Positions 1,320-42,044 of a stretch of DNA of 64,000 bases are shown piece after piece (the stretch's first letter is position 1; every line of letters begins with the position of its first letter). Made by a program: the position numbers and the translations under genes. The stretch lies in NCBI GenBank assembly GCA_964562615.1, contig CAZLUD010000001.1, positions 129,072 through 193,071 on the forward strand. Reading direction: 5' to 3'. This DNA is from an uncultured Candidatus Saccharibacteria bacterium. Its GTDB lineage: Bacteria; Patescibacteriota; Minisyncoccia; Phycocordibacterales; UBA12088. The notes under the pieces are model-generated. The model had not been told where the DNA came from. It ran no database searches and worked only from the letters and a program-made list of their open reading frames with translations.

Positions 1320-2006
1320 ATGGAACCTACATCTCCTGTTACTCATACGTCATCATCTACTGGTACTGATACTGTTCGTGATGCATCGACACTTGTTGAT
1401 ACCCTCACTCCTCCTACTGACATCATCCCGCCAATGGGGCACGATGACTCATTTATAAAAGACGTCATCAAGTATGCGCTTATCGCGCTGGTGATTGTCA
1501 TTCCATTTAGAATGTACATTGCGCAGCCATTTTATGTCTCTGGTGCATCTATGTCTCCCACATTTGAAACCGGCCAATACCTCATCATTGATCAACTCCA
1601 CTACCAATTTAATGAACCGCAACGTGGCGATGTCATTGTATTTAAATACCCTCGTGATCCCTCAAAGTTTTTTATCAAGCGAGTCATAGGCTTACCTGGC
1701 GAGATTGTTGAAGTGCGCGGAAAAGAAATTGTCATAAAGGACAAAGAACATAACGAGCGGTTCTTGCTGCTTGAGCCGTACATAGCAGAAGAGAACTTTA
1801 GGCTTGATTACATCACCACCACCCTCGGAGAAGACGAGTACTTTGTCATGGGAGACAACAGAAAGGCAAGCAGCGACTCTCGTGTCTGGGGACCAGTTTC
1901 TCGTGACCTTATTTCAGGAAAAGCATTCTTGCGCCTTATGCCACTTACCAACATTGACGTATATCCCGGAAAAGAAGTCATCGCCACCTCGCCTATTAGT
2001 AACTAA
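1320..2006 (+). CDS. lepB: signal peptidase I (bacterial Ser/Lys type)
   Basis: GASMSPTF (catalytic Ser box), KRVIGLPGE (Lys box) and GDNRKASSDSRVWGPV boxes are present. N-terminal TM segment. Confidence 0.9.
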   Translation: MEPTSPVTHTSSSTGTDTVRDASTLVDTLTPPTDIIPPMGHDDSFIKDVIKYALIALVIVIPFRMYIAQPFYVSGASMSPTFETGQYLIIDQLHYQFNEPQRGDVIVFKYPRDPSKFFIKRVIGLPGEIVEVRGKEIVIKDKEHNERFLLLEPYIAEENFRLDYITTTLGEDEYFVMGDNRKASSDSRVWGPVSRDLISGKAFLRLMPLTNIDVYPGKEVIATSPISN

Positions 2007-9234: not shown

Positions 9235-9657
9235 TTACTTGAATTCATAGTTAGTGGGATTAACATTTTCCTTTAGGAGATTCTGCAACGGAACAAAAAT
9301 ATTTTCTGGAAATTTATTCCACTCAAACCAGTCCCATCCCTCACACTTATGTGGTTCCATTATCTGAACCTCACCAGAATCATACATTGCTCTGACGTAG
9401 CACGTAATATAATGCTTGTTCTCTTCTGCGAAGATATCGTTTGTAAACGTAAACTTTTCAATTTGTTTTATAGTTATTCCAACCTCCTCCATCACTTCCC
9501 TTTTTGCACAATCTTCTATACTCTCACCAAACTCAAGATGACCCCCAGGGAATGCCCACGACCCCTCACCATGCGCGCCCTTTCTTTTACCAAGTAACAC
9601 CTTGCCATCCTTAATGACTATGACACCAACTCCTACTTTTGGTCGTTGCTCATTCAT
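9235..9657 (-). CDS. NUDIX hydrolase
   Basis: Nudix box GGHLEFGESIEDCAKREVMEEVGI (Gx5Ex7REUxEExGU). Confidence 0.85.
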   Translation of the reverse strand: MNEQRPKVGVGVIVIKDGKVLLGKRKGAHGEGSWAFPGGHLEFGESIEDCAKREVMEEVGITIKQIEKFTFTNDIFAEENKHYITCYVRAMYDSGEVQIMEPHKCEGWDWFEWNKFPENIFVPLQNLLKENVNPTNYEFK

Positions 9658-9772
9658 TGTTACGCTCTTTATTGTTGCAAGTAATTCCTACTAATTTTAT
9701 TTATATTATAAATCATATTTCCCTTTCATGAGTTTAATATCGTGAGTCTCGTGGTATACCTTTTACTTCTGC

Positions 9773-9859
9773 GGAGAGGGGGAGATTCGAACTCCCGATA
9801 CCGGTAAGGGTATGCCGGTTTTCGAAACCGGTGCACTAGACCAACTATGCGACCTCTCC
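9773..9859 (-). tRNA. tRNA-Ser (anticodon CGA)
   Basis: Folded manually. Acceptor ggagagg/cctctcc. Anticodon stem ccggt/accgg with loop ttcgaaa. Long variable arm. T-loop ttcgaat. 87 nt, CCA not encoded. Confidence 0.8.
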
Positions 9860-9990
9860 AGTGACTCCTTAAGAAAATAGCATGATATAGCCCAAGACAC
9901 ATCTCCCCTTACCTCTTCTTTTATTTTATGGTATATTTGCCGTGCCGCTTTGGCGGCATTTTATATAGCAATATTTTACAGAATACACTT

Positions 9991-10062
9991 GGCCCTATCG
10001 TCTAACGGTTAGGACAGCGCCCTTTCACGGCGTAAATCGGGGTTCGATTCCCCGTAGGGTCA
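9991..10062 (+). tRNA. tRNA-Glu (anticodon TTC)
   Basis: Acceptor ggcccta/tagggtc. D-arm tcgtctaacggttaggaca. Anticodon loop ctttcac. T-arm cgggg-ttcgatt-ccccg. Confidence 0.8.
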
Positions 10063-10113
10063 CAAATCGGCCGACCGAATACGCGTATGCGTTTCGGTCG
10101 TTGCCGTTTGTAG

Positions 10114-10133
10114 GCACTACGGGGAATCGAACG
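10114..10133. repeat. inverted partial copy of the tRNA-Glu 3' end (T-loop plus acceptor)
   Basis: gcactacggggaatcgaacg is the reverse complement of cgttcgattccccgtagtgc. Compare the tRNA 3' end ggttcgattccccgtagggtc. Confidence 0.7.
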
Positions 10134-10277
10134 ACGGAGGCGGTATACAAGAACCGAAGCGAAGCGTAGGTTGCTTGTCGCCGAGTCGCGACCTAATTTT
10201 TACGACCAAAGGGAGATAAAAATGGAAGTACTCTTTGTGGTGCGACCAGCGTGCTTAGCCATAATGGCTTAGCAAAA

Positions 10278-10302
10278 GCGGGTCGATTCCCCGTAGGGCA
10301 CA
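10278..10302. repeat. direct partial copy of the tRNA-Glu 3' end (att-like)
   Basis: gcgggtcgattccccgtagggcaca versus tRNA-Glu cggggttcgattccccgtagggtca. No complete cloverleaf can be folded upstream. Confidence 0.7.
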
Positions 10303-10321
10303 TAAAAGAACTTCCTAGGCA

Positions 10322-11074
10322 ATGAAAGTAGAATCACATGCAGTAATTGAAACTAGCAATCTATCACGGATAATATTTTCCGAGCCAATTTTGTATACAT
10401 CACCTTCAAAAGGTGAGGTAAAAATTATGAATCACGACAAAGACAGCAACATCCTTGTTGTGATTATGAATATGGACGTTCAGCACCGCGATGTAGCAAC
10501 ATTCGAATCTGAACGAGAGCTAGTACGAGTCGTTAGCCGTTTAAGCTGGGTACATAATCTTGCAATTGAAAAATATCGTATAACCGGCTATCAATATTCA
10601 GAAACAGCAAATCAAACAAATGCTGTTGTTCTTGCCACAACACTACATATCAATGCGTCAATTTCTGTAATAAAAACAGTTGGGAGGGACGGGGTGGAAA
10701 AACTTAGTACTACATTATCAAAAAACTATACTGAAGAACTAGATTCACTATTGTCTAAGTGGCGTGATGCTATTCGTCAAGAATCATCAATGATTCGGTT
10801 AGTACTTATGTATCAAATACTTGAGTCACTAGCTGGCAGAGTCCGAAGTAAGGTTGAAAAAATGATACGTGACAAAGACCCGCATATTGAATTGCGCAAT
10901 ACTGGCATAAAAAATGATCAGGTTGTAAGTGTATACACTTACCTACGCGACTGTATTCATTTAAAACCAGAAAATCCTCAGTTTCCTTTTCATGAGGTAG
11001 AAGCACATGTCATTCCCATGCAGGAACTTGTAAGAAAAGTACTTAAAGAAAAGTTTACAGACTTACCAGAGTGA
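10322..11074 (+). CDS. hypothetical protein
   Basis: 250-aa ORF immediately after the tRNA-fragment region; no recognisable domain. Confidence 0.4.
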   Translation: MKVESHAVIETSNLSRIIFSEPILYTSPSKGEVKIMNHDKDSNILVVIMNMDVQHRDVATFESERELVRVVSRLSWVHNLAIEKYRITGYQYSETANQTNAVVLATTLHINASISVIKTVGRDGVEKLSTTLSKNYTEELDSLLSKWRDAIRQESSMIRLVLMYQILESLAGRVRSKVEKMIRDKDPHIELRNTGIKNDQVVSVYTYLRDCIHLKPENPQFPFHEVEAHVIPMQELVRKVLKEKFTDLPE

Positions 11075-11592: not shown

Positions 11593-12228
11593 TTAGACAT
11601 CACCACGTGCGATATCCACCTCCCTACCCAATATACGGCTTGCAATACGCTCAAGCGCATCAACGCTATATGCACCTGGTCGTATAAGGGTTATATGCTC
11701 GTTGTTGATTGAAATAACGGTTGAAGGCGCTCCTGCGCACACCCCACCATCTACCACATACCCAATATCTGGAAACTGCTCTTGTATATCAGCAGGTGTT
11801 GAAAGTGGTGTCTGACCTGAAAGATTAGCGCTTGTTGAAGTAATTGGTGTGTCGCAATACTTAAAAAACGCCTCCCTAAATGGATGATCAGGCATACGAA
11901 ATCCGATATACGGTGAGCGGGTAACCGTGCCCAGTAGCGCGCTATCTCCACATGGAATAAGTAGTGATAGTGCGCCTGGCCAACACTCAGAAAGTAACGC
12001 ACTGGCAAACGAAGAAAGGGTGACATAGCGTGAAAGCATAGCAACATCACGCACCATAACTAAAAAATTCTTTTCTGGCGGTGATTGTTTAAGGGAAAAT
12101 AATTGTGATACCGCGGTAGCATTTGTTGCATCCACCCCAAGCCCATATAGGGTGTCGGTAGGATAGGCTATAATCCCGCCTTGCTTTATTATTGCCGCTG
12201 CTTCCCTTGCTTGTGTCTCTATGTCCAT
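11593..12228 (-). CDS. tsaC: L-threonylcarbamoyladenylate synthase (YrdC/Sua5 family)
   Basis: GGIIAYPTDTLYGLGVDATNATAVSQLFSLKQSPPEKNFLVMV is the YrdC signature. Confidence 0.85.
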   Translation of the reverse strand: MDIETQAREAAAIIKQGGIIAYPTDTLYGLGVDATNATAVSQLFSLKQSPPEKNFLVMVRDVAMLSRYVTLSSFASALLSECWPGALSLLIPCGDSALLGTVTRSPYIGFRMPDHPFREAFFKYCDTPITSTSANLSGQTPLSTPADIQEQFPDIGYVVDGGVCAGAPSTVISINNEHITLIRPGAYSVDALERIASRILGREVDIARGDV

Positions 12229-12537: not shown

Positions 12538-12849
12538 ATGATGAAGAATCTTCTGATCCTTTTGCTGGCGATGTTCATTGATTGTTCCTCAGCACCGGCT
12601 TATGCTGGTGCTGAGGAAGTCTCAACACTCCTATCCGACGAAGAGATGGATGCTGCTACCGCGGCGGGATATACATTCGCCATCACTGGGAGCGCAAAAA
12701 ACCTCGGTGTACCGAGGGATGTAAATCCAACAACAGCATGCGGAGGAGGAAAATGCGGCGCTGCTAGCCCCGCCACCGTCACCCTGCCGAAAGGGGTGCA
12801 AGGCTCAATATGGGTTAACGGCGGAAAAGCCTCCATCTTCAGAAAGTGA
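12538..12849 (+). CDS. small secreted Gly/Ala-rich protein (signal peptide)
   Basis: Strong RBS aaggagg. N-terminal MMKNLLILLLAMFIDCSSAPAYA signal-like segment. 103 aa. Locally GC-rich relative to the flanks. Confidence 0.5.
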   Translation: MMKNLLILLLAMFIDCSSAPAYAGAEEVSTLLSDEEMDAATAAGYTFAITGSAKNLGVPRDVNPTTACGGGKCGAASPATVTLPKGVQGSIWVNGGKASIFRK

Positions 12850-12860
12850 TCTCTTACTTC

Positions 12861-12882
12861 GCGGGGGCCAAAAGGCCCCCGC
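12861..12882 (+). terminator. GC-rich hairpin after the small secreted-protein gene (no U-tract)
   Basis: gcgggggcc-aaaa-ggcccccgc. Confidence 0.35.
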
Positions 12883-12972
12883 AGCCACCACGTCATGAGA
12901 CGTGGTTTTGTATTATCCTCATTACTCTTAGCTCGTGGCTTTTCTTCACTATTTCCTCTATACTCTCCGTAC

Positions 12973-14151
12973 ATGAAGATACTAGCCATAGAAACATCCT
13001 GTGACGAAACCGCAGTAGCAATACTAGACGCTACCGGAGAACGGGGAGCAACCACCTATCGTGTACTCGGGCACGCACTGTATTCGCAAGCCTCACTCCA
13101 TAGCGAGTTTGGAGGTGTGTTCCCTGCCCTAGCTAAGCGTGAGCATGGCAACAACATCACCCCTCTTCTACGTGCCTGCCTTGAAGAAGCATCCATGCTA
13201 CAAAGCAATGCTGAAGAAATAAGCGAAGAGAAAAAAAATACCGTACGTACCCTCCTCGAGCGAGAAGGGAGTGCCTCAGAGATGCTTGTAGAGTTTCTTG
13301 ATGAAATAGAGGTGCCTCCTATAGATGCAATTGCAGTAACGAAAGGTCCAGGGCTTGAGCCCGCCTTGTGGGTGGGTATCAATGTAGCAAAGGCACTTTC
13401 ACTTATCTGGAACATCCCGCTAATACCTGTAAATCACATGGAGGGGCACATCATATCTGCTCTCGCATCACCCACCACTACTGGTGACCTACAAGAAACA
13501 TTTGAAGTACATAATGTACCCTTTCCCCTTGTTACCTTACTTATTTCAGGCGGGCATACCGAGTTTGTTGCGCAAGACAATTGGAATACTAAGCAAATCA
13601 TAGGAGAAACTCGTGACGATGCCGTGGGAGAAAGTTTTGATAAGGTAGCGCGCATGCTCTCTCTTCCATATCCTGGTGGAAAAGAAATCTCTCGCCTTGC
13701 ACAAGTAGCACGTGACGAGGGATTGCCTGATATTGATCCGCTCCCTCGCCCCATGCTACAGAGTGATGATTGTGATGTATCTTTTTCTGGATTAAAGACC
13801 GCCGTCTTGTATCGCCTCAAGGAGGAAATACCAAGCGAAACCATCACCAAGCAATACGCGCGCGCATTTGAAGATGCGGTTACTGAGGTACTAGTAGCAA
13901 AGTCGCTCAAAGCAATAAAAAAGACAGGTGCAAAAGCATTTGCCGTTGGTGGCGGAGTTGCAGCAAATTATTATATTCAAAAAAATCTTACCGCTACCCT
14001 CCGCCAGCACTATAGCGATATATCGCTATATTTTCCTAAACCAGAGATAGCTACTGACAACGCAATAATGATTGCCATGGCCGCCTACTATACCGATGAA
14101 AGGGTCACAGATCCATCGCTCCTTAGTGCCGATGGAAGAATGGGGTATTAG
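12973..14151 (+). CDS. tsaD: tRNA N6-adenosine threonylcarbamoyltransferase TsaD/Kae1
   Basis: MKILAIETSCDETAVAILD N-terminus, HMEGHI metal-binding motif and GGVAAN. Longer than usual because of an internal insertion. Start moved to the MKILAIE Met. Confidence 0.9.
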   Translation: MKILAIETSCDETAVAILDATGERGATTYRVLGHALYSQASLHSEFGGVFPALAKREHGNNITPLLRACLEEASMLQSNAEEISEEKKNTVRTLLEREGSASEMLVEFLDEIEVPPIDAIAVTKGPGLEPALWVGINVAKALSLIWNIPLIPVNHMEGHIISALASPTTTGDLQETFEVHNVPFPLVTLLISGGHTEFVAQDNWNTKQIIGETRDDAVGESFDKVARMLSLPYPGGKEISRLAQVARDEGLPDIDPLPRPMLQSDDCDVSFSGLKTAVLYRLKEEIPSETITKQYARAFEDAVTEVLVAKSLKAIKKTGAKAFAVGGGVAANYYIQKNLTATLRQHYSDISLYFPKPEIATDNAIMIAMAAYYTDERVTDPSLLSADGRMGY

Positions 14152-14669
14152 TGAAAAGGAACTGTAGATGAGTTTTATATAAAGTTATACCCCGCCAGCA
14201 TGAGTGCTGGCGGGGCGTGCGATATCGCATCAAATCAATGTTTTCTCTTTTTCCTACTTACCTCCTTGCGGAGGATGGTAGGGTCTTTCTGCTTGCCGGA
14301 AACGGTCGTTGATATGCCGAGGCGGGTCGCCTCAGTATGGAGCTGCTCGAGCTCCATCTGTGCTTGGTGGATGGTACCACTACCTCTTAGGGTGGGCGTT
14401 ATCCTCATTTTTTCCTCCTTCTCAACTAGAAGATGTACAGTTGAACGCGTTACTACCTGAACGATTTGCAGCTGCATCGAAGGCCTCCAACTCTCACCGC
14501 ACTGTTGCGGTGAGCCTGTCCTGATTTTTCTCAGTGACAGGGAAATTGGGCAAATAATTAGTTATTTGTGCTTTGCCTTATTTCCCTGTCACCGGTACTA
14601 TCTGTGTATATAATACCACCAATACATCATTTTGTCAATACACTCGTTCCGTAACAAACTTTCACCATT

Positions 14670-16238
14670 TTACCCGTTATCCCTATGTGATGTAAAGAGG
14701 TGGGCAAGGCGTACAAAGAGTACGATAAGCACCAACACTAGTGGCCATATGTAGCACCACGCTTCAATAAGTACCCCAAGCAGAATTGCGCCAATAACCC
14801 CAGTAACAAAGACAACCAGTGTTCTAAAGAGTCTTGTATAAGGAAGAGTGCTATCTGCGGTAAAGAAATCAAGTAGCGCAGAGCCAGCCATTAAGAGTGC
14901 CATGACAAGGAGGGGGAACATCTCATATGGATCTTCGTCTATAAACCAAATAATCATGGCGCTTACTGCTCCAAGAAGCGCAAATATTGTCGTACGAGAA
15001 AATGTTCGCGCGATGGGTACCTTTGCATCAACCATATCTCTTCCCCACCATGTAGCAATAAGATAGGCAATGAGGGTAATGATAGTAACAATCCACGCGC
15101 TATCACACTCGCCAATAGCAAATAAATTATTCAAAAAGTCTGGTAGTCCAAATAGCGCTGCCGCGGCTTGGGAATTGTTTTGTGGTTGCTCCTCACCTTC
15201 TGGAGGTGTCGTAGTATCGTCCTGCGGTTCTGTTGTCGCATCACCTCCTGTTGTGCCGCCTACACCACCAGCGGTGCCTCCCGTGGTATTTCCACCACCA
15301 GTTGCGCCACCTTGTGGTTCGCCCTCAGGCTCTACCGAGAAAAACGTTGACGCAACAAGTGGTACGGTAAAAATAAATTCTGGACTTACCGTAAACACAT
15401 CCCCTGGATTTTGTCTTGATGCAACGCGATACACATATGTCTCTCCGGGTATAAGACCAGAAAGTGGCAATGAGTGATCAAGGGTAATGGTTGTCTCTTC
15501 AGCAGTAGTTGCTGGGTAGCCAAAATTAGGATCAAAAAGATTCAAACTGTATGGACCGCCAGATTGTAGTCCATATACTACCTTACTTGTTGCGGGCAAG
15601 TTGGTATCCCACACAATAGTTGCATCACCATCAAGGGTAATATTGAGGGCGTTCTCATTGAAAGTATCAAGATTGGTGAGTGTTACCGGCCCTCCTCCCC
15701 CGCCTCCGCCGCCACTAGGCGGTGTAGTGGGTACGGGGGTCTCTCCACCACCATCACCATCTGATACACAGCTATTGTCGCCACCACTAAATCCGACACA
15801 AAAATCAAAACCTGCACTACCAAGTTGAAATTCATTCCCAGCGGTACTAGGAAATGCTACCGAAAAGGTGTAGGTAGCTGACGCGCCATTTGCGAGGTTA
15901 CTGGTAAGCGCGCGAGGAGTTCCATCAATAAAACTACTTATCGGGAGATTGTTAATAAATGTTGTGCCACTTGTTACAGTAAGGTATAGCGTGCTTGCAA
16001 GATTTCCTGTCGAGAATCCATTGGTTGCCTTTACATACACATCTTGCGATTCGGTTGAGGTATTAGTTACCACTACCGTTCGAGATATAGTGTCGCCTGG
16101 TTTTATATCTCCCTCACTAAAGAGTGGTTCTTGTTCAAAGTCGACTGATATATTTGCCGCAAACACAGTCGTAGCAGATGAGCACAGCATCGCCCCAGCA
16201 AGTATAAAGATGGTAAGTAATCGGTTATAGTGCCTCAT
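14670..16238 (-). CDS. TasA/camelysin-like secreted protein with FN3-like middle domain and C-terminal multi-TM anchor
   Basis: N-terminal hydrophobic segment. DIKPGDTISRTVVVTNTSTESQDVYVKA resembles the TasA/camelysin core. Poly-Gly/Thr linker. VYGLQSGGPYSL ... GETYVYRV is FN3-like. About 5 C-terminal TM helices. 14-nt overlap with the upstream gene. Confidence 0.65.
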   Translation of the reverse strand: MRHYNRLLTIFILAGAMLCSSATTVFAANISVDFEQEPLFSEGDIKPGDTISRTVVVTNTSTESQDVYVKATNGFSTGNLASTLYLTVTSGTTFINNLPISSFIDGTPRALTSNLANGASATYTFSVAFPSTAGNEFQLGSAGFDFCVGFSGGDNSCVSDGDGGGETPVPTTPPSGGGGGGGGPVTLTNLDTFNENALNITLDGDATIVWDTNLPATSKVVYGLQSGGPYSLNLFDPNFGYPATTAEETTITLDHSLPLSGLIPGETYVYRVASRQNPGDVFTVSPEFIFTVPLVASTFFSVEPEGEPQGGATGGGNTTGGTAGGVGGTTGGDATTEPQDDTTTPPEGEEQPQNNSQAAAALFGLPDFLNNLFAIGECDSAWIVTIITLIAYLIATWWGRDMVDAKVPIARTFSRTTIFALLGAVSAMIIWFIDEDPYEMFPLLVMALLMAGSALLDFFTADSTLPYTRLFRTLVVFVTGVIGAILLGVLIEAWCYIWPLVLVLIVLFVRLAHLFTSHRDNG

Positions 16239-17751
16239 AGTCTTCTTTTATTGCCTCTACTTCTGTAACAGGTACCATAATAACCACCTCTTCGTGCGTC
16301 TCAGTATCACCACCTGAAGAAGAGGAGACAGTGACGCTCTCTACCACATCAGTGGTTGTCGCCTCGTTTGCCACCACTTCGTTTCCACGTGCGGGCATAA
16401 TATCCTCTTCTCTTGTTTCTGCAACTGCATCGGTCACTTCGTTATAGGTAGTGTGTGCAGTGTCATTGTCATCAAAAGGTGTCGGTTCAGGCAATAGTGG
16501 CAGTGGTGTTGTTTCCTCCACAGTCTCACTACCTGCTTCTTGTTCTATCAATAATTCGTGAGGGGCATCTACTACTCCACTATCGGTGTGCTCAACAGTG
16601 AGCGTATCTTCAGTTACCAACAATGCTTCGGTTGATACTTCCATTGTTTCAGGTGGAAGCTCTTCATCTCCAGGCACAATAATATTTGACTCACCCGGTG
16701 TTGGGATAGGATCAAACCATACCCCGATACCATTTGGTGATCGCGCCACGGTCTTTCCAACAGCAATTGATCCAAAACTTCTTTTATCTAGTAGTACATT
16801 GTTATTGTCATACAGCGTCACGGTGTCACCGGTATTATTTAGCTTGGTTGGATCAGCAAATAAAAGCACTGCATATCCATGTGCCGGAATAATAGTAGAA
16901 CCTGCAAGTGTTCCAATTTGATTTGAAGCGGGGCTACTTGCCACAATGGTATACAAATTCTCAGTTACTCCTCCAGATAATTCTGATACTACCCACCCTG
17001 CAATATCTACCGGTGTGTCGCCATTGTTATATAACTCTATCCACTCACTATTATTTGGATAGGTCGCAGAGCTACTTGGATTAGGTAGTATCTCATTAAG
17101 CACTACCATTTTTGCGGTAAGGTCAAAAGATACTCGCTCTGTATCACTAAAGCCGCTTTCAGTAGTTGTTGCTGCCGAGAGTAAAAAGGCATCAAACGCA
17201 ATATCAAAATTACACACATCCCCGTGTCCTACAGGTACTAATGGTGGTACATCAAACTCAAACTCCCAAGCACCAAAGTCTTGCGTAGGCAACAGCGCAA
17301 GTCCTTCAAGTGGACCTGCATACTGCACCAATCCGTTTCGGGTTGCTTCTATATCTATTGCTGCACAAAAATCTGCATCTCCAGCTATATTACTTGCGCG
17401 AGTAATGTATTTAGTTGGGACACTCAGTGGCGAAAGTGCCACCAGTGACGCATAGTCAACTTCTCCAAGTGCTTCAACGCCAATATGACTTGTGAGTGTA
17501 TCGTTAACGAGCGTAATATCAAGCTCTCCTGCAACAAAACTATTCTGCGTCGCCGCCTCGATGTCGGTAAAGTACGCAATGGTACTACCGACACCGAGGA
17601 GCCCCACCCAGTTAAGAGCAACTATGAGGAGGAGTGCAGTGACGCGTGCGCATGGCCCGGAAATAATCCGGAGAAAGCGCACCAATGATTGATGTGCTTG
17701 CTTCGAGCTATTTGCCGTAGTAACTATTTTATACATTGTTTTCTTCTTCAA
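16225..17751 (-). CDS. secreted protein with SipW-cognate signal and lamin-tail domain (LTD), acidic C-terminal tail
   Basis: GVGSTIAYFTDIEAATQNSFVAGELDITL matches the SipW-cognate signal class. LNEILPNPSSS ... SEWIELYNNGDTPVDIAGW matches the LTD pattern. Confidence 0.7.
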   Translation of the reverse strand: MKKKTMYKIVTTANSSKQAHQSLVRFLRIISGPCARVTALLLIVALNWVGLLGVGSTIAYFTDIEAATQNSFVAGELDITLVNDTLTSHIGVEALGEVDYASLVALSPLSVPTKYITRASNIAGDADFCAAIDIEATRNGLVQYAGPLEGLALLPTQDFGAWEFEFDVPPLVPVGHGDVCNFDIAFDAFLLSAATTTESGFSDTERVSFDLTAKMVVLNEILPNPSSSATYPNNSEWIELYNNGDTPVDIAGWVVSELSGGVTENLYTIVASSPASNQIGTLAGSTIIPAHGYAVLLFADPTKLNNTGDTVTLYDNNNVLLDKRSFGSIAVGKTVARSPNGIGVWFDPIPTPGESNIIVPGDEELPPETMEVSTEALLVTEDTLTVEHTDSGVVDAPHELLIEQEAGSETVEETTPLPLLPEPTPFDDNDTAHTTYNEVTDAVAETREEDIMPARGNEVVANEATTTDVVESVTVSSSSGGDTETHEEVVIMVPVTEVEAIKEDYEAL

Positions 17752-18265
17752 TTTTATTTCTTCGGCGTATATGTTTTGTCTCTTTTACAATAGTGGCTAT
17801 CTCGTCAATAACTACTATGCCTGCTGGTATTCCTATAAGAAAGATAAATCCCCATGGCTTTTTAGCAATATCTAGCAAGTAACCAATATACGGAATACTG
17901 AAGAGCACCTTCCCTATCACCTCGCTTACCGCTACAGACCCAGAATCCTTCTCTTCGTTTGCATCTCCCTTTGTTTCAAATCGTATTTGTCCTCCTGAAA
18001 TAATGTCCGCGACAATACGGTGTGTGGTGGGTATGCTTGTCTCTGATTCTTCACCAAAGGTAATCACATCACCTACCGCATACGTCTCTTTTGGCATGAT
18101 GACCACAATGGATCCTGTTTGTATCGCTGGCTCCATGGAGCCTGACTGCACAATCTTTACCGATATATTACCCGGGATAGGAATAAGTGTTGCCACAAGA
18201 AGCAACCCCAGTGCAGTAACAGCAGCAAGGAATGTGTAGTAGGCGATTGAAAAGAGCGTATTCAT
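17729..18265 (-). CDS. sipW: signal peptidase I, archaeal/ER-type (SipW-like, Ser-His-Asp)
   Basis: SGSMEP catalytic Ser box, THRIV His box and KGDAN. N- and C-terminal TM segments. 178 aa. Overlaps the downstream gene by 23 nt. Confidence 0.85.
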   Translation of the reverse strand: MNTLFSIAYYTFLAAVTALGLLLVATLIPIPGNISVKIVQSGSMEPAIQTGSIVVIMPKETYAVGDVITFGEESETSIPTTHRIVADIISGGQIRFETKGDANEEKDSGSVAVSEVIGKVLFSIPYIGYLLDIAKKPWGFIFLIGIPAGIVVIDEIATIVKETKHIRRRNKIEEENNV

Positions 18266-18341
18266 AGCGTTGTACTCACGACCTCATTGCTACGCCCGCA
18301 ATAACAGAGAGGCGTAGCATGAAGTCGTGAATAAGGTCTAC

Positions 18342-19637
18342 CTAGATTACATCTGGTGTATCCGAACCTCCGTCGGTGGTACAGTCAAAGTCTTCATTGT
18401 TTCGTGACTGTACGGCATATACGGTTAGCCCTGCTGAAATAGTATCTGTCTGTGCAAGGTTAGTAGATGAAAGCGCTGCCGGAGATGCTGCCGTGGTTCC
18501 ATCACACGTAAATGGTGCACCATCAACCACTCCTAATGTTCCTGCACACCACGCGACACTGACATATTCTGTAGTTCCGCCGACATGTACCCCATTAGCC
18601 ATATTTGCATCATGAATTGGCACCTCCATTGATCCAGCAAATGAGTCGTGGAGTAATTCTGTTTCGGACGTATCTTTTATGCCATCCATATCTGTATCAA
18701 GCCAAAAGTACATATCGATGAGTTCTCCCAACTCTCCATCGTTATCAAGAGAGCTGTCACCAACTTCAACCTCTGGATCAGTCAATCCATTTTCTTCATT
18801 TACTACATCGTTAACATAAAGACATGAGTATGCATCATTACTGTTTACGTGTAGCGATATAGTGTTTGTTCCGTAATCACCTGGCTTTACATCAGTGAAT
18901 GCAAAGAATTTGTGATCATCAAGATCAGTTGCAGTCCACAACTTGCAAGAGCCACCAACTGAGTAGGCAAATTCACTTGGATTGCATACTCCATCGATTA
19001 CCGCCTTAAACATTACCCCTGCTGGGTTAGTAGTTGGAGTACTCCCAGGCACGCCCAAGTTGTCCACCTCTACTTCAATCGTGTTGAGTCCAGGCACCAT
19101 TGCTGATGCGATGTTGTACACATCCTCAGTTCCAAGCTGGAAGTTGTTTTCATCTGTTGAAGCACCTACCAACACGCCATTTACCCTCGCGCGGTGTTGG
19201 TTATCTGATGCAACATACAATTGTGCTGATGCGACACTGCCACTCCACACAAAGGTTTTGGTAAAGGTGAATGTCTGAGTAACTGTAGGGTCGCTCACAG
19301 GATTACTAATCCATATCCAATCACCTGCCCCACCAGTACCATCAAGATCTGCTGTCCATGCAGGGTGGATAAAGGTAAGTACTTCAGCATTTGCATTAGA
19401 GTTTTCATCTACCGTTACTCCGATACTGCTTGGTACCTCGTTATCACATCCATAGACACACTCCTCACCAAGGTACGAGGCAAACGTATGATCAATGGTG
19501 AGATTTATATCACCAGCCGTAAAGACGTTACCCGTTGATGTCTCACTATCGTTGAAGAATGCCCCTGTACCCATAGCTACCACCGACCCGAGGCCGATGA
19601 TAACTATGAGAGAGCTAATAATTCTAGTGTATTTCAT
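18342..19637 (-). CDS. TasA/camelysin-like secreted protein (SipW-cognate signal)
   Basis: GTGAFFNDSETSTGNVFTAGDINLTID N-terminal motif. FTDVKPGDYGTNTISLHVNSND core. Shares a VQSRNNEDFDC motif with the 516-aa paralog. An SD-like gaaggt lies upstream. Confidence 0.7.
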   Translation of the reverse strand: MKYTRIISSLIVIIGLGSVVAMGTGAFFNDSETSTGNVFTAGDINLTIDHTFASYLGEECVYGCDNEVPSSIGVTVDENSNANAEVLTFIHPAWTADLDGTGGAGDWIWISNPVSDPTVTQTFTFTKTFVWSGSVASAQLYVASDNQHRARVNGVLVGASTDENNFQLGTEDVYNIASAMVPGLNTIEVEVDNLGVPGSTPTTNPAGVMFKAVIDGVCNPSEFAYSVGGSCKLWTATDLDDHKFFAFTDVKPGDYGTNTISLHVNSNDAYSCLYVNDVVNEENGLTDPEVEVGDSSLDNDGELGELIDMYFWLDTDMDGIKDTSETELLHDSFAGSMEVPIHDANMANGVHVGGTTEYVSVAWCAGTLGVVDGAPFTCDGTTAASPAALSSTNLAQTDTISAGLTVYAVQSRNNEDFDCTTDGGSDTPDVI

Positions 19638-19688
19638 TTAATTTACCTTCTCATGCTGATAAGTGAACAAACAATAGTGTTCAAGAAA

Positions 19689-21203
19689 CTAGTTCTCGAA
19701 GTCAAACTTCTTTGTAACGCCATTTACTGTCATTGAGAAACTATCAACATTTCCAGTAAATCCATCTGCATATGGCTCACCTACACGAATACCAAGCCAT
19801 GAGTCTGTTGATCGTGTCTCAGCGTTAGGCCATGTAGCAACAATATCGTTCCATGTTCTGTTTGCATTAGTGTTTCCATCTGGCCACATGTTGCCGTTAG
19901 CTGCAAATCCAGACCATGACCACATGCTTGTACCACCTGTATTCCATGTCTGCCATGTGTCAGGTACTACCGTGCCGTTAGCACTTGGTACAAACACTAG
20001 ACGCCTTTGCCATGTATCAGAATTGTTAAAGTCAACATTGAAGTGAAGGTACGGTGCTCGCTGTGTGCTTCCAGGGTTACCAACCGATTGCGAAAGGGTG
20101 GTAAAGCTCATTGCGTCGATATCAGCAAGCTTTATATCCTTAAACTGATAGGTAGCGATATTCTTTCTTTCTGTTCCTGATACTGTCATTTGTGCGCTTC
20201 CTGTACCAGTCATAGGAGTGGTAGGTCCTGCAACAAAGCTGCCAAGTCCGCTATTGATAGTGTCGTTCTCATCGTTATAGAAGAACCACTTTGTAGGGTC
20301 AGATGCTACATCTACAAAGCTTGATGCTAGGTTAGACGCACCAACATTTGTCTCGATAGCAATAGGTCCAGCTGCAGGTACTCCCTCGCATACGAAACTA
20401 CTATTATTTCGAGACTGTACTGCCATAAAGGCTACATCCAGTTTTGTGCTGTCTGTTTGTGCGGCATTGGTAGTACTTGCACCATCGCAGGTAAATCCAG
20501 TACTACCTCTAGCAAGTGGACCGCTAGTAGCAACTCCATCTTGAGAAACTGGTGCGCTTGTCATTGTTCCAAAGCACCATCCCTTACCAATATACCGCTC
20601 TGTGTTTCCCGCTACTGGTCCAGTGGTTGTCCAGATGTTTCGATTTGAGTCTGCAAGAGCAATGTTTATCGGGGTGTTAAGTGGTGCGTCACCTAATTTT
20701 CCTTGGGTGATTACTGTCTCGTCACTTTCAAGTACATTGTCTCCGTCATCAGCCCACCACATAAATGAAAGTGATTGTGCAAGGTCACCGTCAGTCATGT
20801 CTGTGTCTGGCTCTACACAGGTAGTATCAACACCAAGCTCTGAGTCATTGCAGGTTACGTCATCATTCTCTTTTACGGTAACTGCAGCACAAAGCCATGA
20901 GTCGTTTGATGACACCTTAAGTCCAATGGTGTCCTCACCGTGATCACCTGGCTTTACATCAGCAAAATTGAAAAAGAGCTTACCAGTAAGCTCGTTCCAC
21001 GCCCATGTAGTAGCCGTTGAAGCAACAAGAGTACCTGTCGCATCAGTGACATAACTTGTGTTAGATACCTTGAGGTCAATGTCTCCTGCAGCAAAGGTAT
21101 TTCCTGTCGAAGTCTCTGAATCAGAGAAAAACGCTCCAGTAGCTCCGATTGCCGCTACGCCTACAAAGGCGATCATTGCAAGCGATAATATGATTCTTTT
21201 CAT
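19689..21203 (-). CDS. TasA/camelysin-like secreted protein (SipW-cognate signal)
   Basis: GATGAFFSDSETSTGNTFAAGDIDLKV. FADVKPGDHGEDTIGLKVSSNDSW core. MAVQSRNNSSFVC paralog motif. Start set at MKRIILSL. Confidence 0.7.
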   Translation of the reverse strand: MKRIILSLAMIAFVGVAAIGATGAFFSDSETSTGNTFAAGDIDLKVSNTSYVTDATGTLVASTATTWAWNELTGKLFFNFADVKPGDHGEDTIGLKVSSNDSWLCAAVTVKENDDVTCNDSELGVDTTCVEPDTDMTDGDLAQSLSFMWWADDGDNVLESDETVITQGKLGDAPLNTPINIALADSNRNIWTTTGPVAGNTERYIGKGWCFGTMTSAPVSQDGVATSGPLARGSTGFTCDGASTTNAAQTDSTKLDVAFMAVQSRNNSSFVCEGVPAAGPIAIETNVGASNLASSFVDVASDPTKWFFYNDENDTINSGLGSFVAGPTTPMTGTGSAQMTVSGTERKNIATYQFKDIKLADIDAMSFTTLSQSVGNPGSTQRAPYLHFNVDFNNSDTWQRRLVFVPSANGTVVPDTWQTWNTGGTSMWSWSGFAANGNMWPDGNTNANRTWNDIVATWPNAETRSTDSWLGIRVGEPYADGFTGNVDSFSMTVNGVTKKFDFEN

Positions 21204-21593
21204 GTATACGTATCTACTAATAATAATCTGATAAATCATTCACTTACTATAACTGGCACTCTTAAAGAACAGATACGACAAACACCGCATTTCTGGTGCG
21301 GTTTCTCTCGTCTACGCGTTAGTAGTTATGCGCATGACTTCGACAGTATACGCCACAATATTCACACAATACAAAGGTGAAATGCGTGCTAACAACGATG
21401 AAAAATCACTGTCAAATAAAAGGACAATACGCATTTTTATATATCAATAACAAAGCCATATAATCGATGTCTTTTATAATTCAAACGAGGCATTTCCTCG
21501 TAAAAGACATAACTTTATAGGACACATTTAGTGACCTATATAACCCCGTCTTATGCACGTGGTACACGTGTTGCAGTGTGCTATAGTAGCCAT

Positions 21594-23807
21594 ATGAATG
21601 AGAAGGTAACAGACCCAATCTTTTTGAAGCCATACAACCCCTCTGAGGTAGAGGAATCTCTCTACAGAGAGTGGGAGACATCTAGCTTCTTTAACCCAGA
21701 CACCTGCAAAGAAAGAGGCGTCGCAGACCCTGAAGCACAGCCCTTTTCTATTGTGCTTCCACCGCCTAACGTAACCGGTACTCTCCACATGGGGCATGCC
21801 GCCATGCTGGCGACAGAGGATATTCTGGTCCGTCACGCGCGCATGACTGGCAAGCCAACACTTTGGCTACCTGGCACAGACTCAGCTGCCATCGCAACCC
21901 AAAGCAAGGTTGAAAAAGAGATACAAAAAAAGGAGGGTAAAAGCCGGTACGACCTAGGAAGAGATGAACTACTTAGACGCGTAGGAGAATTTGCTGAAGA
22001 AAGCAAGGCAACCATCATTGCTCAAACCAAAAAAATGGGAAGCAGTCTTGATTGGTCACGTTATGCCTATACCATGGACGAAACTCGCTACAAGGCAGTA
22101 ATGACGGCCTTTGTGCGCATGTATGAGGCAGGACTCATCTACCGTGGTCACCGTATCGTAAATTGGGACCCTAAGGGGCAAACCACCATCTCCGATGACG
22201 AAATCGTGTACGTAGAAGAGAAAACTACCTTTTACCATTTTCAATATGGTCCATTTGTCATAGGTACCGCTCGTCCAGAAACTAAATTTGGGGACAAATA
22301 TGTCGTGATGCATCCAGATGATGAACGCTACAAAGACTACTCACATGGTCAAACAATCGAGGTTGAGTGGATAAATGGAATTATTACTGCAACCATAATT
22401 AAAGATGCCTCAATTGATATGGCGTTTGGTACGGGAGTTATGACCATTACCCCGTGGCATAGTGTGGTTGATTTTGAAATCGCAGAACGTCACCACCTTG
22501 ATAAAGAGCAGATTATTGATGAACGAGGCAAGCTTCTCCCTATTGCTGGCGAGTGCGCTGGTATGAAAATTACCGAAGCAAGAGCACGTGTTGTTGAGCT
22601 CCTACGAGCAAAGGGGCTTATTGTAAAAGAAGAGGCATATACCCATAACATAGCCACCGCAGAGCGTACTGGTGCAACCATTGAACCTCAAATTAAGGAA
22701 CAATGGTTTATTGACGTTGATAAAGAATTTACTATCCCAAAGTCTTCTATTGTTGGTATACCAAGTGGTTCACAAACAACACTTAAAGCACTTATGAAGC
22801 AGTGTGTAGAGAGTAAAGAAATACACATACTTCCCGACCGATTTGAGAAGGTCTACTTTAACTGGATAGATAATTTGCGACCATGGTGTATATCTCGCCA
22901 AATATGGTTTGGGCACCGCATACCCGTATGGTACAAAGGTGAAGAAATGTTTGTAGGAGTTACCGCCCCTACCGGTGAAGGATGGGAGCAAGACCCGGAC
23001 ACGCTTGATACATGGTTTTCTTCTGGTTTATGGACATTTTCTACCTTGGGTTGGCCTGATAACACCCCCGACCTTACTACCTACCACCCAACTACCGTAC
23101 TCGAAACCGGTTATGACATACTCTTTTTCTGGGTAGCACGTATGGTACTTATGAGCACGTTCCATCTTGGAGAGGTGCCATTTAAAACGGTCTACCTTCA
23201 CGGTCTTGTGCGTGATGCCAAAGGACAAAAAATGAGCAAATCTCTCGGCAACATCATCGATCCAGTAGAGCTCATAGAAAAGTACGGCGCTGATGCAGTA
23301 CGCCTCTCTCTTATTATTGGCGCTGCAGCTGGTAATGACACCAAGCTATCTGAAGACAAGGTGCGTGGCTATAAATACTTTGCTAATAAGCTATGGAATG
23401 TAGCAAGATTTATTTTTGAAAATACACAAGACACGGATATCACGGATGGTGCAACACTTTCAACACAAGATGCGCAGTACCTACACACCTTTACTGAACT
23501 TAGCAAAGAAATTGACAGTGACATACAGAACTTCAGACTCTACTTAGCTGCAGAAAAGTTGTATCACTACGCATGGGACACGCTCGCCGCCCATATCCTT
23601 GAAGAAAGTAAGAAGCTATTTGCAGAAGGCAATGAGGCACTCATTACGTCTAGAAAACAACTACTACTTATCATCTTGCGTGACCTGTTAAAGCTACTCC
23701 ACCCTTTTGCGCCGTTTGTAACAGAAAAAATTTGGCAACACTCGCCATTTAGACAACAGTCTCGTCCATTTATCATGATAGAGACGTGGCCTGTTCACAA
23801 CAAATAA
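21594..23807 (+). CDS. valS: valyl-tRNA synthetase (short form, no C-terminal coiled-coil)
   Basis: PPPNVTGTLHMGHA (HIGH), WCISRQIWFGHRIPVWY and KMSKSLGN. 737 aa from the MNEKV start. Confidence 0.9.
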   Translation: MNEKVTDPIFLKPYNPSEVEESLYREWETSSFFNPDTCKERGVADPEAQPFSIVLPPPNVTGTLHMGHAAMLATEDILVRHARMTGKPTLWLPGTDSAAIATQSKVEKEIQKKEGKSRYDLGRDELLRRVGEFAEESKATIIAQTKKMGSSLDWSRYAYTMDETRYKAVMTAFVRMYEAGLIYRGHRIVNWDPKGQTTISDDEIVYVEEKTTFYHFQYGPFVIGTARPETKFGDKYVVMHPDDERYKDYSHGQTIEVEWINGIITATIIKDASIDMAFGTGVMTITPWHSVVDFEIAERHHLDKEQIIDERGKLLPIAGECAGMKITEARARVVELLRAKGLIVKEEAYTHNIATAERTGATIEPQIKEQWFIDVDKEFTIPKSSIVGIPSGSQTTLKALMKQCVESKEIHILPDRFEKVYFNWIDNLRPWCISRQIWFGHRIPVWYKGEEMFVGVTAPTGEGWEQDPDTLDTWFSSGLWTFSTLGWPDNTPDLTTYHPTTVLETGYDILFFWVARMVLMSTFHLGEVPFKTVYLHGLVRDAKGQKMSKSLGNIIDPVELIEKYGADAVRLSLIIGAAAGNDTKLSEDKVRGYKYFANKLWNVARFIFENTQDTDITDGATLSTQDAQYLHTFTELSKEIDSDIQNFRLYLAAEKLYHYAWDTLAAHILEESKKLFAEGNEALITSRKQLLLIILRDLLKLLHPFAPFVTEKIWQHSPFRQQSRPFIMIETWPVHNK

Positions 23808-23831
23808 CGCTTTGTGCGTTATACTTTATGC

Positions 23832-24572
23832 ATGGAGCTAGCCGCTACGTGGCTTTCTATTATTGGCGCGTCACCCGCTGGGGCTTATGCCTATGCGTTT
23901 ATAGGAGGTATCGTACCTGCGCTAGTATGGCTTGTGTTCTTTTTGCGTGAAGACAGACTTCACCCCGAGCCACGAAAGCTACTTATCTTTACCTTCATCG
24001 CCGGTATGTCCTGCGTTATCTTTGTACTTCCTGTACAACGATTTGCATATGGATTTTTAACCGGTGGATCGCTATTACTCGCATGGGCATTTATTGAGGA
24101 GTTATTTAAATACTGGGCAGCGTATCTTGTGGTGTTGTGGCAATCGGCGGTGGATGAGCCAATGGATCCAGTCATTTATATGATTACCGCCGCGCTTGGA
24201 TTTGCCGCACTCGAAAATGCACTTTTTATGTCAGGCCCTCTATTAAGCGGTAATCCTACAGAAGCGCTCATAACGGGTAATCTTCGTTTTATTGGTGCTG
24301 CCCTTCTTCATGTGGTTGCTTCTGCATCAATCGGTATCGCACTTGCTCTTTCGTTTTATCGAAAGAGCAAATATAAACGATTGTATTTTTTAACCGGATT
24401 TATCCTTTCAGTCTTATTGCATACTATATTTAACTTTTTTATAATGGAGAGTAACGGAGGAGAGGTACTTATTGTCTTTTCTTTTGTCTGGATTGGTGTC
24501 ATTCTATTACTACTCCTCTTCGAGAGAATAAAGCTTATCAAAAAACCATTACCCGCAAACATCTTTAAATAA
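23832..24572 (+). CDS. prsW: PrsW-family intramembrane protease
   Basis: Polytopic. FIEELFKYWAA (EExxK) and FAALENALF motifs typical of PrsW (DUF2324). Confidence 0.65.
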   Translation: MELAATWLSIIGASPAGAYAYAFIGGIVPALVWLVFFLREDRLHPEPRKLLIFTFIAGMSCVIFVLPVQRFAYGFLTGGSLLLAWAFIEELFKYWAAYLVVLWQSAVDEPMDPVIYMITAALGFAALENALFMSGPLLSGNPTEALITGNLRFIGAALLHVVASASIGIALALSFYRKSKYKRLYFLTGFILSVLLHTIFNFFIMESNGGEVLIVFSFVWIGVILLLLLFERIKLIKKPLPANIFK

Positions 24573-25587: not shown

Positions 25588-25702
25588 AAAAAAATTGTAG
25601 CATAATTTGCTCAGGCCTCACGAAGGGAGAAGTGAAAAGCAAACAATAATGTTCGTTGCACGTAAAAGGCCGAGGACAAATGTCCTCGGCCTTTTACTCA
25701 TG

Positions 25703-25775
25703 TGCTTGGGGCCGGGTTCGAACCGGCGACCCTTCGCTCTTCAGGCGAATGCTCTACCAACTGAGCTACCCAAGC
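25703..25775 (-). tRNA. tRNA-Phe (anticodon GAA)
   Basis: gcttggg-ta-gctcagttggtagagc-a-ttcgc-ctgaaga-gcgaa-gggtc-gccgg-ttcgaac-ccggc-cccaagc-a. A bidirectional hairpin (25665-25696) lies downstream. Confidence 0.85.
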
Positions 25776-41704: not shown

Positions 41705-42044
41705 TTTATATTGACATTTTTTTAAAAAAGTATTTTCTGGTATAAGCAACAATTGGAGTATGGAGGTAATTAGATGCAAACCTTTTTTCTTGTATTCTTG
41801 GCGTGCCTTTCAATAGCACCAGAGGCGCGCTGTCAAAAGGTAGAAATCGCCTGGGAAGGCAGTTTGCAACAATGCATGCTGTTCGGTCAGCAGAAAATTG
41901 CCGCATGGTCGGGGGAGCATCCTGGCTATCTTCCCATGCGTGGGTACAAATGTCTTTGGGGCAAAGCTGTATAAGGCTTTGCCCCAAAGAAAAGGCGCTT
42001 CCGAATATCGGAAGCGCCTTTTCTGTTACCGAATGACTTTTGTT

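Follow-up and report, generated by a model that had tools for sequence, protein, structure and literature searches.

Fibres whose subunits are joined by donor-strand exchange, without a chaperone or usher, have been proposed for Haloarcula hispanica and demonstrated by cryo-electron microscopy (cryo-EM) for TafE of Natrinema sp. J7-2 (PMC11821415, PMC12337348). In these archaeal tafi systems, TafC is the tip or nucleator, TafE the adapter, TafA the shaft, TafF the anchor, and TafD the dedicated peptidase; TafF combines a pilin-like N-terminal domain (about 140 aa) with a Sec and not a twin-arginine translocation (Tat) signal and with C-terminal transmembrane (TM) helices, three of them in H. 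hispanica. All descriptions of tafi-like loci, which also occur in Thermococcales and Archaeoglobales, come from archaea to date (PMC11821415, PMC12337348). Here we describe a cluster of five genes at positions 14670-21239 of a 64-kb stretch of DNA (the window) from an uncultured, ultra-small Candidatus Saccharibacteria bacterium of the Patescibacteria (contig CAZLUD010000001.1). The window is bacterial and contains genes for a class A RNase P and a tmRNA as well as for six tRNAs. We consider it reasonably probable that the cluster encodes a surface fibre of the TasA/tafi type, assembled by donor-strand exchange and anchored in the cytoplasmic membrane.

All five open reading frames (ORFs) were confirmed where the initial annotation had placed them, co-oriented on the minus strand, which also carries all cluster features given below. 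They encode a pilin-like subunit of 516 aa (19689-21239), its paralog of 431 aa (18342-19637), an S26B SipW-like signal peptidase I of 178 aa (17729-18265), a protein with a lamin tail domain (LTD) of 508 aa when read from a TTG codon (16225-17751), which is the candidate tip or nucleator, and a protein of 522 aa (14670-16238), which its domain layout and TM helices make the candidate membrane anchor and terminal acceptor. The spacer that follows the second pilin gene and precedes that of the peptidase is predicted from its folding energy to form an RNA stem-loop (18266-18341).

The cluster had been likened to the tapA-sipW-tasA operon of Bacillus subtilis, with which it does have the type of peptidase, the type of signal, and the donor strand in common, but the closest described architecture is that of tafi. 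As in tafi, a dedicated S26-type peptidase is clustered with two pilin-like beta-sandwich subunits, a two-domain tip or nucleator as source of the first donor strand, and a TM anchor with a signal of another type, the corresponding roles being putative here. The differences from tafi are that the host is bacterial and that export is by Sec and not by Tat, an RR motif being absent from the first 30 residues of all five cluster proteins; the Sec-type tafi-like loci of Thermococcales are nearer in this respect. Moreover, the peptidase is a single-domain protein of 178 aa with two TM segments, whereas TafD has two domains and four TM segments, and the pilins carry a TasA-type SipW-cognate signature and extra modules resembling carbohydrate-binding modules (CBMs). 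A scan of the five cluster proteins and of ten neighbours found no DUF5305/TafG partner. The TafF model NF052523 weakly matched a single one (E 0.0024) of 70 sequences related to the 522-aa protein and did not match the 522-aa N-terminal domain or a Methanoregulaceae counterpart.

With the B. subtilis system (PDB 8AUR; PMC9674648), the cluster shares an archaeal-type peptidase encoded beside its substrates, the TIGR04088 signal with its aromatic P1' and P2' residues, the donor strand with its conserved Phe, and the jellyroll core. It differs in having four TasA-like proteins instead of one, in gene order, in cores that either far exceed that of TasA in size (some 235 aa, to which the appended domains are added) or are far more compact than it (some 130 aa), and in possessing a TM-anchored member that lacks the donor strand, while B. 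subtilis has no anchored acceptor. TapA, which has a donor-strand-like N-terminus, has been proposed as the donor of the first strand and nucleator of the fibre (PMC9674648); no TapA homolog was found among the five proteins with Pfam and NCBIfam models, and the 508-aa protein can at most be its functional analog. In the B. cereus sipW-tasA-capP(bc1280)-calY system, multiple TasA-family subunits (TasA and CalY) likewise heteropolymerise, under the control of an accessory protein that is processed by SipW and associated with the cell wall, but CapP is described as a chaperone restricted to the B. cereus group, which sets it apart from a TasA-like TM anchor, and neither LTD nor FN3 modules occur (PMC4292775; bioRxiv 10.1101/2024.02.27.582368). 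AbpA/AbpB of Pyrobaculum calidifontis resemble our proteins in the TasA-superfamily jellyroll pilin, the donor-strand complementation, and the multi-domain minor protein proposed as initiator or adhesin; the ABP locus, however, has no dedicated signal peptidase, and no TM-anchored acceptor has been described for it (PMC9245690). Patescibacteria are among the phyla in which PF12389 homologs have been counted, without analysis (Wang et al. 2022; PMC9245690), and no description of the present system in the Candidate Phyla Radiation (CPR) was found in the literature searched.

Processing signals and TasA-type domains

The 178-aa peptidase scores 97.4 bits against TIGR02228 (sigpep_I_arch; cut-off 51.85), and its Ser, His, and Asp, located in the boxes SGSMEP, THRI, and KGDAN, respectively, can be aligned with those of Bacillaceae SipW and of archaeal homologs, a catalytic Ser and His without a Lys, in keeping with the Ser-His-Asp enzyme of archaeal or endoplasmic-reticulum type first proposed. 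It consists of a single catalytic domain with N- and C-terminal membrane segments. Against the Bacillus SipW equivalog NF046067 it reaches 115.7 bits, under the cut-off of 190, which makes it an enzyme of the same type but not the curated equivalog. A normal LepB had also been reported for this genome, and this housekeeping signal peptidase I is indeed encoded outside the cluster (1320-2006, plus strand; 159.4 bits against PF10502, Peptidase_S26; SMSPT and GDNR motifs).

The SipW-cognate signature seen at first in the 516-, 431-, and 508-aa proteins is recognised in all three by TIGR04088 (cognate_SipW; 23.2, 31.3, and 29.3 bits, respectively, cut-off 19). The "loose" match ascribed to the 522-aa protein did not hold, as TIGR04088 gives no match whatever to it, nor to any of 70 relatives (0/70). 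The initial annotation had named the lack of a TIGR04088 or TasA match and the loss of the catalytic Ser or His as grounds for abandoning its reading; the matches and both residues are present. The predicted signal of the 516-aa protein comprises residues 1-36 (21132-21239) and that of the 431-aa protein residues 1-26, both with cleavage at TGA↓FF, and the long signal region of the 508-aa protein ends at TIA↓YF; the 522-aa protein has an ordinary signal peptide (residues 1-27, 16158-16238) with the site VFA↓AN. In the family alignments, the cleavage-site columns read T-G-A↓F-F-S-D for the 516-aa family, T-x-A↓Y/F-F/Y-S/T-D for the 508-aa family, and (A/V)-x-A↓ followed by small or polar non-aromatic residues and then L-x-V-x-F for the 522-aa family, the SipW-type site common to the three secreted proteins being A↓(F/Y)F-S/T-D. 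According to PMC10269814, LepB cleaves substrates with an aromatic P2' residue poorly, and TasA, with Phe at P2', thus needs SipW. On this basis, the 516-, 431-, and 508-aa proteins seem to depend strictly on the dedicated peptidase for their processing. Judged from their sequences, these three precursors would be cleaved by the adjacent enzyme, and the 522-aa protein would be processed by LepB as an ordinary client. The peptidase gene adjoins those of its putative substrates in the related loci examined, and peptidase-substrate fusions occur in two of the sequences collected (L007 and P0168).

In the TasA fibre, residues 28-38 of one subunit insert in the next one, with F29, I32, and F39 as contacts, and deletion of residues 28-38 abolishes fibres (PMC9674648). 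The mature N-termini of the 516-, 431-, and 508-aa proteins (FFSDSETSTGNTFAAGDIDL, FFNDSETSTGNVFTAGDINL, and YFTDIEAATQNSFVAGELDI) align with this donor strand, both Phe positions being kept, and the segment FFSD.ETS.GN.F.AG.IDL is nearly invariant in 70 relatives. The donor-strand segments correspond to residues 37-58 of the 516-aa protein (FFSDSETSTGNTFAAGDIDLKV; 21066-21131), residues 27-48 of the 431-aa protein (19494-19559), and residues 60-82 of the 508-aa protein (17506-17574). An AlphaFold2 model of the 516-aa monomer (pLDDT 85.7) contains a confident N-terminal domain (residues 56-290) and a confident C-terminal domain (residues 293-516), while the donor region is unstructured (pLDDT <50) and residues 32-49 form the sole long low-confidence stretch.

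All four non-peptidase proteins belong to the TasA superfamily, in a large-core class (516 and 431 aa) and a compact-core class (508 and 522 aa), and profile links bear out a TasA-like core for all four, the initial annotation having named it in the 522-, 431-, and 516-aa proteins; a TasA-like jellyroll fold was found as well, monomer models having covered the 516- and 522-aa proteins. PF12389 matches the window proteins with scores of 20.1, 19.4, and 16.4, limited to profile positions of about 12-51 of 196, and does not match the 522-aa protein; among 70 relatives of the 516-aa protein, 58 are matched at E<=1e-3 (best 1.8e-8), and some relatives are already named "TasA family protein" at NCBI. 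In hhalign comparisons, the 516-aa core aligns with TasA-like proteins of small size from Dehalococcoidales and CPR bacteria (Prob 98.8, E 8e-17, 171 columns), one of which is a PF12389 member with 49.6 bits, and the 522-aa N-terminal domain aligns with Bacillaceae TasA/camelysin (Prob 92.6, E 4.4e-7, 116 columns), including a member with 291 bits against PF12389. The 508-aa core (residues 83-212) is connected to the 522-aa N-terminal domain with Prob 95.5 and E 1.6e-8. The 516-aa core compared directly with the 508-aa core (E 0.34) and the 522-aa N-terminal domain (E 0.056) gave no significant alignment, and its link to the other cores rests on intermediates and on the fold. The name RiPP (ribosomally synthesized and post-translationally modified peptide) precursor, in use at JGI, was rejected, as the proteins are multi-domain and 430-520 aa long.

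The initial description of the four as paralogs is accurate at the level of BLASTP for one pair, the 431- and 516-aa proteins, which align over 217 aa with 32% identity (E 2e-25) and over 47 aa at the N-terminus with 57%; to relate the others, profiles or folds must be compared. In BLASTP, the 508-aa protein has no more than its N-terminal 48 residues in common with these two, and the 522-aa protein gave nothing significant against the other three. The four proteins are not equivalent as paralogs, and fall into two classes to which distinct roles can be provisionally assigned.

The TasA-like core of the 516-aa protein (residues 59-292, 20364-21065) is followed by a C-terminal jellyroll (residues 293-516, 19692-20363) that we take for a CBM- or lectin-like module. 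In the 431-aa protein, a domain of about 170 aa, likely beta-rich, is inserted (residues 52-225, 18963-19484) ahead of the core (residues 226-431, 18345-18962). A search for the family of this insertion returned as best match a non-significant Bac_rhamnosid_N (E 0.12), and an ortholog with the same insertion is encoded in the related locus L002. The KPGD motif reported for the 516-, 431-, and 522-aa proteins and the VQSRNN..F.C motif reported for the 516- and 431-aa proteins are both present. The large Cys-containing core of the 516- and 431-aa proteins, with the motifs KPGD...EPE...VQSRNN, has these motifs in common with large haloarchaeal TasA-like proteins, which suggests from the motifs that the VQSRNN proteins and the haloarchaeal ones may form a cross-domain "large TasA" subfamily. 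Such haloarchaeal proteins, encoded in L017 (5074-6843 and 6920-8062) and L008 (1194-2285), have Tat signals and carry D.KPGD.G, NGQTEPE, and a C-terminal EQ(C/R)RHND.

In the 508-aa protein, a compact TasA-like core (residues 83-212, 17116-17505) precedes the LTD (residues 213-345, 16717-17115) and an acidic low-complexity tail (residues 346-508, 16228-16716). The lamin-tail domain and acidic tail first attributed to one of the proteins are thus found here (PF00932, 57.4 bits), and the family alignment shows that the architecture is conserved. L007 (9938-11275) and P0168 contain a variant in which the peptidase is fused, in one ORF, to a second TM segment, a cleavage site (A↓YFND or A↓YFSD), a donor strand, and an LTD, without a TasA-like core, so that the LTD part is covalently joined to the enzyme presumed to process it. 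It represents either an auto-processing fusion of enzyme and substrate or a frameshift at an overlapping gene junction. Because it lacks the TasA-like core, this LTD variant can only donate a strand.

The 522-aa protein is organised differently. Its signal peptide is followed by a TasA-like domain without donor strand (residues 28-155, 15774-16157), a Gly linker, an FN3-like domain (residues 187-296, 15351-15680), a disordered Gly/Thr/acidic linker (residues 297-365), and four to five TM helices (residues 366-522, 14673-15143), which agrees with the FN3-like domain, Gly/Thr linker, and C-terminal multi-TM anchor of the initial annotation. The predicted model comprises an N-terminal domain (residues 30-150, pLDDT >90), the FN3 domain (residues 190-295), the disordered linker, and five helices (residues 375-521), and all 70 relatives (70/70) have C-terminal hydrophobic or TM helices, between one and six each. 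The donor strand is absent because the mature end ANISVDF corresponds to about T43 of TasA; the hhalign alignment with TasA begins at template residue 42, past that strand. The strand-only protein of L007 and P0168 and this groove-only membrane protein would fix the two ends of a polar chain. The TM domain had no family match, and the weak Piezo and ryanodine-receptor matches of the 522-aa profile in the PDB were discarded as low-complexity or TM artefacts. Pfam DUF7263 scores 20.6 bits, below its threshold of 27, and was found in none of six archaeal neighbours scanned (four haloarchaeal and one Methanoregula are named).

A hidden Markov model (HMM) of the 522-aa N-terminal domain was used to find envelope-anchored relatives in other lineages. 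In L018, a tasA locus of Saliterribacillus persicus in which sipW occupies 9402-10037, positions 10149-10838 encode a protein of 229 aa that has an ordinary signal, a TasA-like domain lacking the donor strand (KPGD, GNEYQG), and an LPxTATN sorting signal (NF058670, 39.9 bits vs 32) and for which no description was found in the literature searched. Beside SipW-type peptidases of Methanoregulaceae, L013 (11765-12931) and L015 (11844-12860) encode proteins with a signal, a TasA-like domain, and three to four C-terminal TM helices. In Clostridia (L019, L024, L029, L038), proteins encoded beside SipW-type peptidases have two TasA-like domains and SPxTG sortase signals, some of them with a SipW-type N-terminus. 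The Firmicutes proteins of L018 and of the four clostridial loci resemble the 522-aa N-terminal domain in their TasA-like domain and in the neighbourhood of a SipW-type peptidase, but they differ in attachment to the cell wall through LPxTATN or SPxTG instead of TM helices, and were not found in the literature searched. The principle of an anchored acceptor may thus be widespread.

Conservation across loci, the spacer hairpin, and the genomic setting

Seven Patescibacteria loci (peptidase identity 45-90%) and the more distant L010 were found with the peptidase as a probe, and three further loci, L047 (Nomurabacteria), L048, and L049, through homologs of the 508- and 522-aa proteins. The full order of pilin(s), peptidase, LTD protein, and anchor is present in nine of these 11 other loci (L001-L004, L006, L010, and L047-L049); in L005 the contig ends before an anchor gene comes into view, and in L007 these parts are all present, the peptidase and LTD protein being joined in a fusion. 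This conservation across Patescibacteria supports the initial proposal of a dedicated system, for which synteny had been suggested as a check. Related loci encode one to three pilins with a GTGAFFSD-type signature, whose appended modules vary (none, CBM-like, beta-helix, or SpaA-like), and L049 keeps the flanking genes for ValS and TsaD. Homologs of the pilins number more than 1661 among the matches listed, and a query of the anchor N-terminal domain plus FN3 returned 2326 cluster representatives at E<=1e-3, 190 of them at E<=1e-30. In two of the loci, genes for secreted proteins with a CAP domain (PF00188) adjoin the cassette (L047, 8638-9696; L048, 498-1286 and 8724-9752), and in L048 the genes for a sortase and a SpaA_2-like protein lie directly upstream, with a second S24-like peptidase encoded downstream.

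The spacer hairpin was evaluated in an 84-nt stretch (18262-18345) with a minimum free energy of -39.7 kcal/mol (z -6.9), which was reached by none of 200 shuffles, and ranked eighth among the roughly 16000 windows of 76 nt on the two strands of the 64 kb. It fills the 76-nt spacer and ends 12 nt before the ATG of the peptidase gene, without a following U-tract. Because only 12 nt separate it from this ATG, the downstream genes must be read through the hairpin. Eight of the 11 related loci have a hairpin of unrelated sequence at the same position (among them L001, L003, L005, L006, L010, L047, and L049), and in L002 a local hairpin lies at the 5' end of a longer spacer. We regard it as a candidate attenuator or mRNA stabiliser that would favour the pilin mRNA and set the ratio of pilin to accessory proteins. 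A second structure within the cluster covers the codons for signal peptide and donor strand of the 508-aa gene (17541-17616, minus strand, 76 nt; -37.5 kcal/mol, rank 13 of about 16000 windows). Elsewhere in the window, further 76-nt segments form very stable structures of -39 to -54 kcal/mol (41953-42028, 10049-10124, 25657-25732, 12837-12912, and 37517-37592), some of which adjoin tRNA genes, whereas one is found where groEL ends (3' end; 42045-43688). These structures may be the terminators of this organism, apparently lacking U-tracts.

The overlaps of 14 and 23 nt noted in the initial annotation are right in length, but the 14-nt overlap is that of the 508- and 522-aa genes and does not involve the peptidase gene. 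The overlap of 23 nt between the peptidase gene and the 508-aa gene applies to the TTG start. Public gene calls use an ATG at 17736, five codons downstream of the TTG, which gives a protein of 503 aa, and for this reason an overlap of 8 nt (ATGTATAA) is more likely. Translation of the 516-aa ORF probably begins with Met13 (21203; 504 aa), since its closest relatives have 503 aa and begin with MKRVILS; the first 12 codons (21203-21239) are probably not translated, judging from relatives whose start, MKR.ILSLAMIAF, corresponds to Met13. An ORF of 40 aa (MRIVLLFDSDFSSLLARISPLYCVNIVAYTVEVMRITTNA; 21312-21434, minus strand) ahead of the first pilin gene is called in three public contigs; it is featureless and probably spurious.

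The cluster lies between housekeeping genes, with TsaC (11593-12228) and TsaD (12895-14151) on its downstream flank and the divergently transcribed genes for ValS (21531-23807) and PrsW (23814-24572) on its upstream flank, and G+C is even across the region (about 0.44-0.47). The gene for the PrsW-family intramembrane protease directly follows valS on the plus strand, a pairing that recurs in L044; nothing that would connect it with the fibre genes was found. Across positions 14100-21600, a scan gave 17 consensus promoters and 7 consensus terminators, no excess over the 14.7 and 4.7, respectively, of shuffled controls.

A fibre model and its alternatives

In the model that we propose, Sec would export all proteins, and the dedicated peptidase would cut the 516-, 431-, and 508-aa precursors, whose aromatic P1' and P2' residues LepB would handle poorly, freeing their N-terminal strands at the membrane surface. 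The 508-aa LTD protein would give the first strand and so become the distal tip, and the 516-aa subunit, with its 431-aa paralog as co-subunit or adapter, would polymerise head-to-tail, the N-terminal strand of each subunit completing the sandwich of the next. The appended modules, CBM- or lectin-like in the 516-aa protein and inserted in the 431-aa protein, would decorate the shaft. The 522-aa protein, probably cut by LepB, could accept but not donate a strand; it would end the chain and tie it to the membrane through the FN3 spacer and the flexible linker, while the hairpin after the pilin genes probably would keep the pilin mRNA above the mRNA for peptidase, tip, and anchor. A fibre of this kind would likely serve adhesion to a host cell or to surface glycans, and is a candidate host-attachment organelle and bacterial counterpart of tafi.

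Several observations weigh against this model. Polymer, complexes, and processing are predicted from genes and from models of monomers, and either the 516- or the 431-aa protein could be the major subunit. None of the window proteins attains the gathering score of PF12389 (22.5), of which only some 35 N-terminal model residues are matched, and searches of PDB sequences with the four proteins and with their family profiles retrieved no TasA and nothing informative. The 516-aa core gave a non-significant E of 0.023 against the Bacillaceae TasA core alone, so its homology is transitive via the smaller Dehalococcoidales/CPR proteins, and the fold matches are moderate, the jellyroll or beta-sandwich fold being common. 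As to the proposed roles, the 508-aa protein has a TasA-like core of its own and could therefore be an ordinary or adapter subunit and not the tip; the 522-aa N-terminal domain keeps an equivalent of the self-complementing strand of TasA (residues 48-61) and could hence be closed and non-accepting; and the hairpin could be a full terminator that splits the cluster in two transcription units.

In one alternative, the TasA-like proteins would be released as a matrix or biofilm scaffold, like TasA of B. subtilis, and the 522-aa protein would be no fibre subunit but an assembly platform, chaperone, or regulator that binds subunits transiently. The equivalent of the self-complementing strand in its N-terminal domain would fit this. 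Fibres of Bacillus TasA are matrix components whose accessory proteins act as nucleators or chaperones (PMC9674648; bioRxiv 10.1101/2024.02.27.582368), transient binding of subunits has been proposed for B. cereus CapP and B. subtilis TapA, and the authors of the tafi studies also envisage the release of "non-finalized" chains. However, the 522-aa family always combines a TasA-like domain lacking the donor strand with a spacer and a membrane anchor, as expected of a terminal acceptor, and the Bacillaceae counterpart beside sipW has a sortase signal for the cell wall, so that envelope attachment of this domain recurs. An anchored adhesin would also be more economical for CPR bacteria as episymbionts with small genomes. 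For these reasons, we consider a released scaffold unlikely.

If the proteins were instead monomeric, they would be independent secreted or surface lectins, adhesins, and LTD proteins, and the peptidase merely a specialised enzyme of secretory processing. The confinement of Pfam matches to the signal and N-terminal region would fit this, as would the variety of appended domains (LTD, beta-helix, SpaA_2, CBM-like), which is typical of modular surface proteins; the polymer is itself a prediction. Yet the segment after the cleavage site is conserved in 70 sequences far beyond the needs of a signal peptidase and matches the donor strand of TasA with its contact Phe, and it is left unstructured, not packed, in the model of the 516-aa monomer. 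Furthermore, the fixed order of four roles and the existence of donate-only (L007, P0168) and accept-only (522-aa family) variants are hard to explain without strand exchange, and independent monomers thus appear quite improbable to us.

It is scarcely credible that the TasA/camelysin-like proteins are secreted metalloproteases (MEROPS M73) attacking host envelopes, a reading that we rejected: the sole Pfam family match does bear the name Peptidase_M73, camelysin metallo-endopeptidase, but it covers the signal and donor-strand region only, the HEXXH motif is absent from all four proteins, and TasA is treated as a fibre subunit whose camelysin link is maybe an ancestral remnant (PMC9674648). 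A sortase pilus was rejected as well, none of the four proteins having a C-terminal LPXTG and no sortase being encoded among the cluster or neighbouring genes scanned; the single match to LP.[TSA]G among the four lies inside the FN3 domain.

Meaning for Patescibacteria and TasA-type fibres

A large part of bacterial diversity falls to the CPR, or Patescibacteria, which live for the most part in attachment to other cells. To our knowledge, their attachment machinery is known almost only in the form of type IV pili.

The cassette for a TM-anchored pilus of TasA type that depends on Sec and SipW in Patescibacteria appears to be undescribed and very widespread. It is not categorically new, since every part is of a known kind and the logic of tafi was published in 2025. 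It is possible, although we would not yet count on it, that Patescibacteria, at least those of Parcubacteria type, own a phylum-wide new class of cell-surface pilus with Sec export, SipW processing, donor-strand exchange, and fixed polarity, made of an LTD tip, a shaft decorated with exchangeable lectin-like modules, and a TM terminal acceptor. On this wider reading, the fibre would be a bacterial homolog or analog of tafi, and some of the thin appendages between CPR cells and their hosts could be these fibres and not type IV pili. The anchored acceptor beside SipW, with its sortase version, would extend to Firmicutes and methanogens and would point to an ancient cross-domain logic of pilus assembly that needs only a signal peptidase.

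If the model proves correct, TasA biofilm fibres would be tied to archaeal tafi by a common S26B peptidase, tip, shaft, and anchored acceptor. It would also provide a rule for the polarity and termination of fibres in TasA-type systems, where anchoring in Bacillus has been attributed to TapA. For Patescibacteria, the cassette would mean a second and simple adhesive organelle, made from five genes without ATPase, usher, or sortase and very common in genomes of Parcubacteria type, and the variable lectin-like modules could set host specificity.

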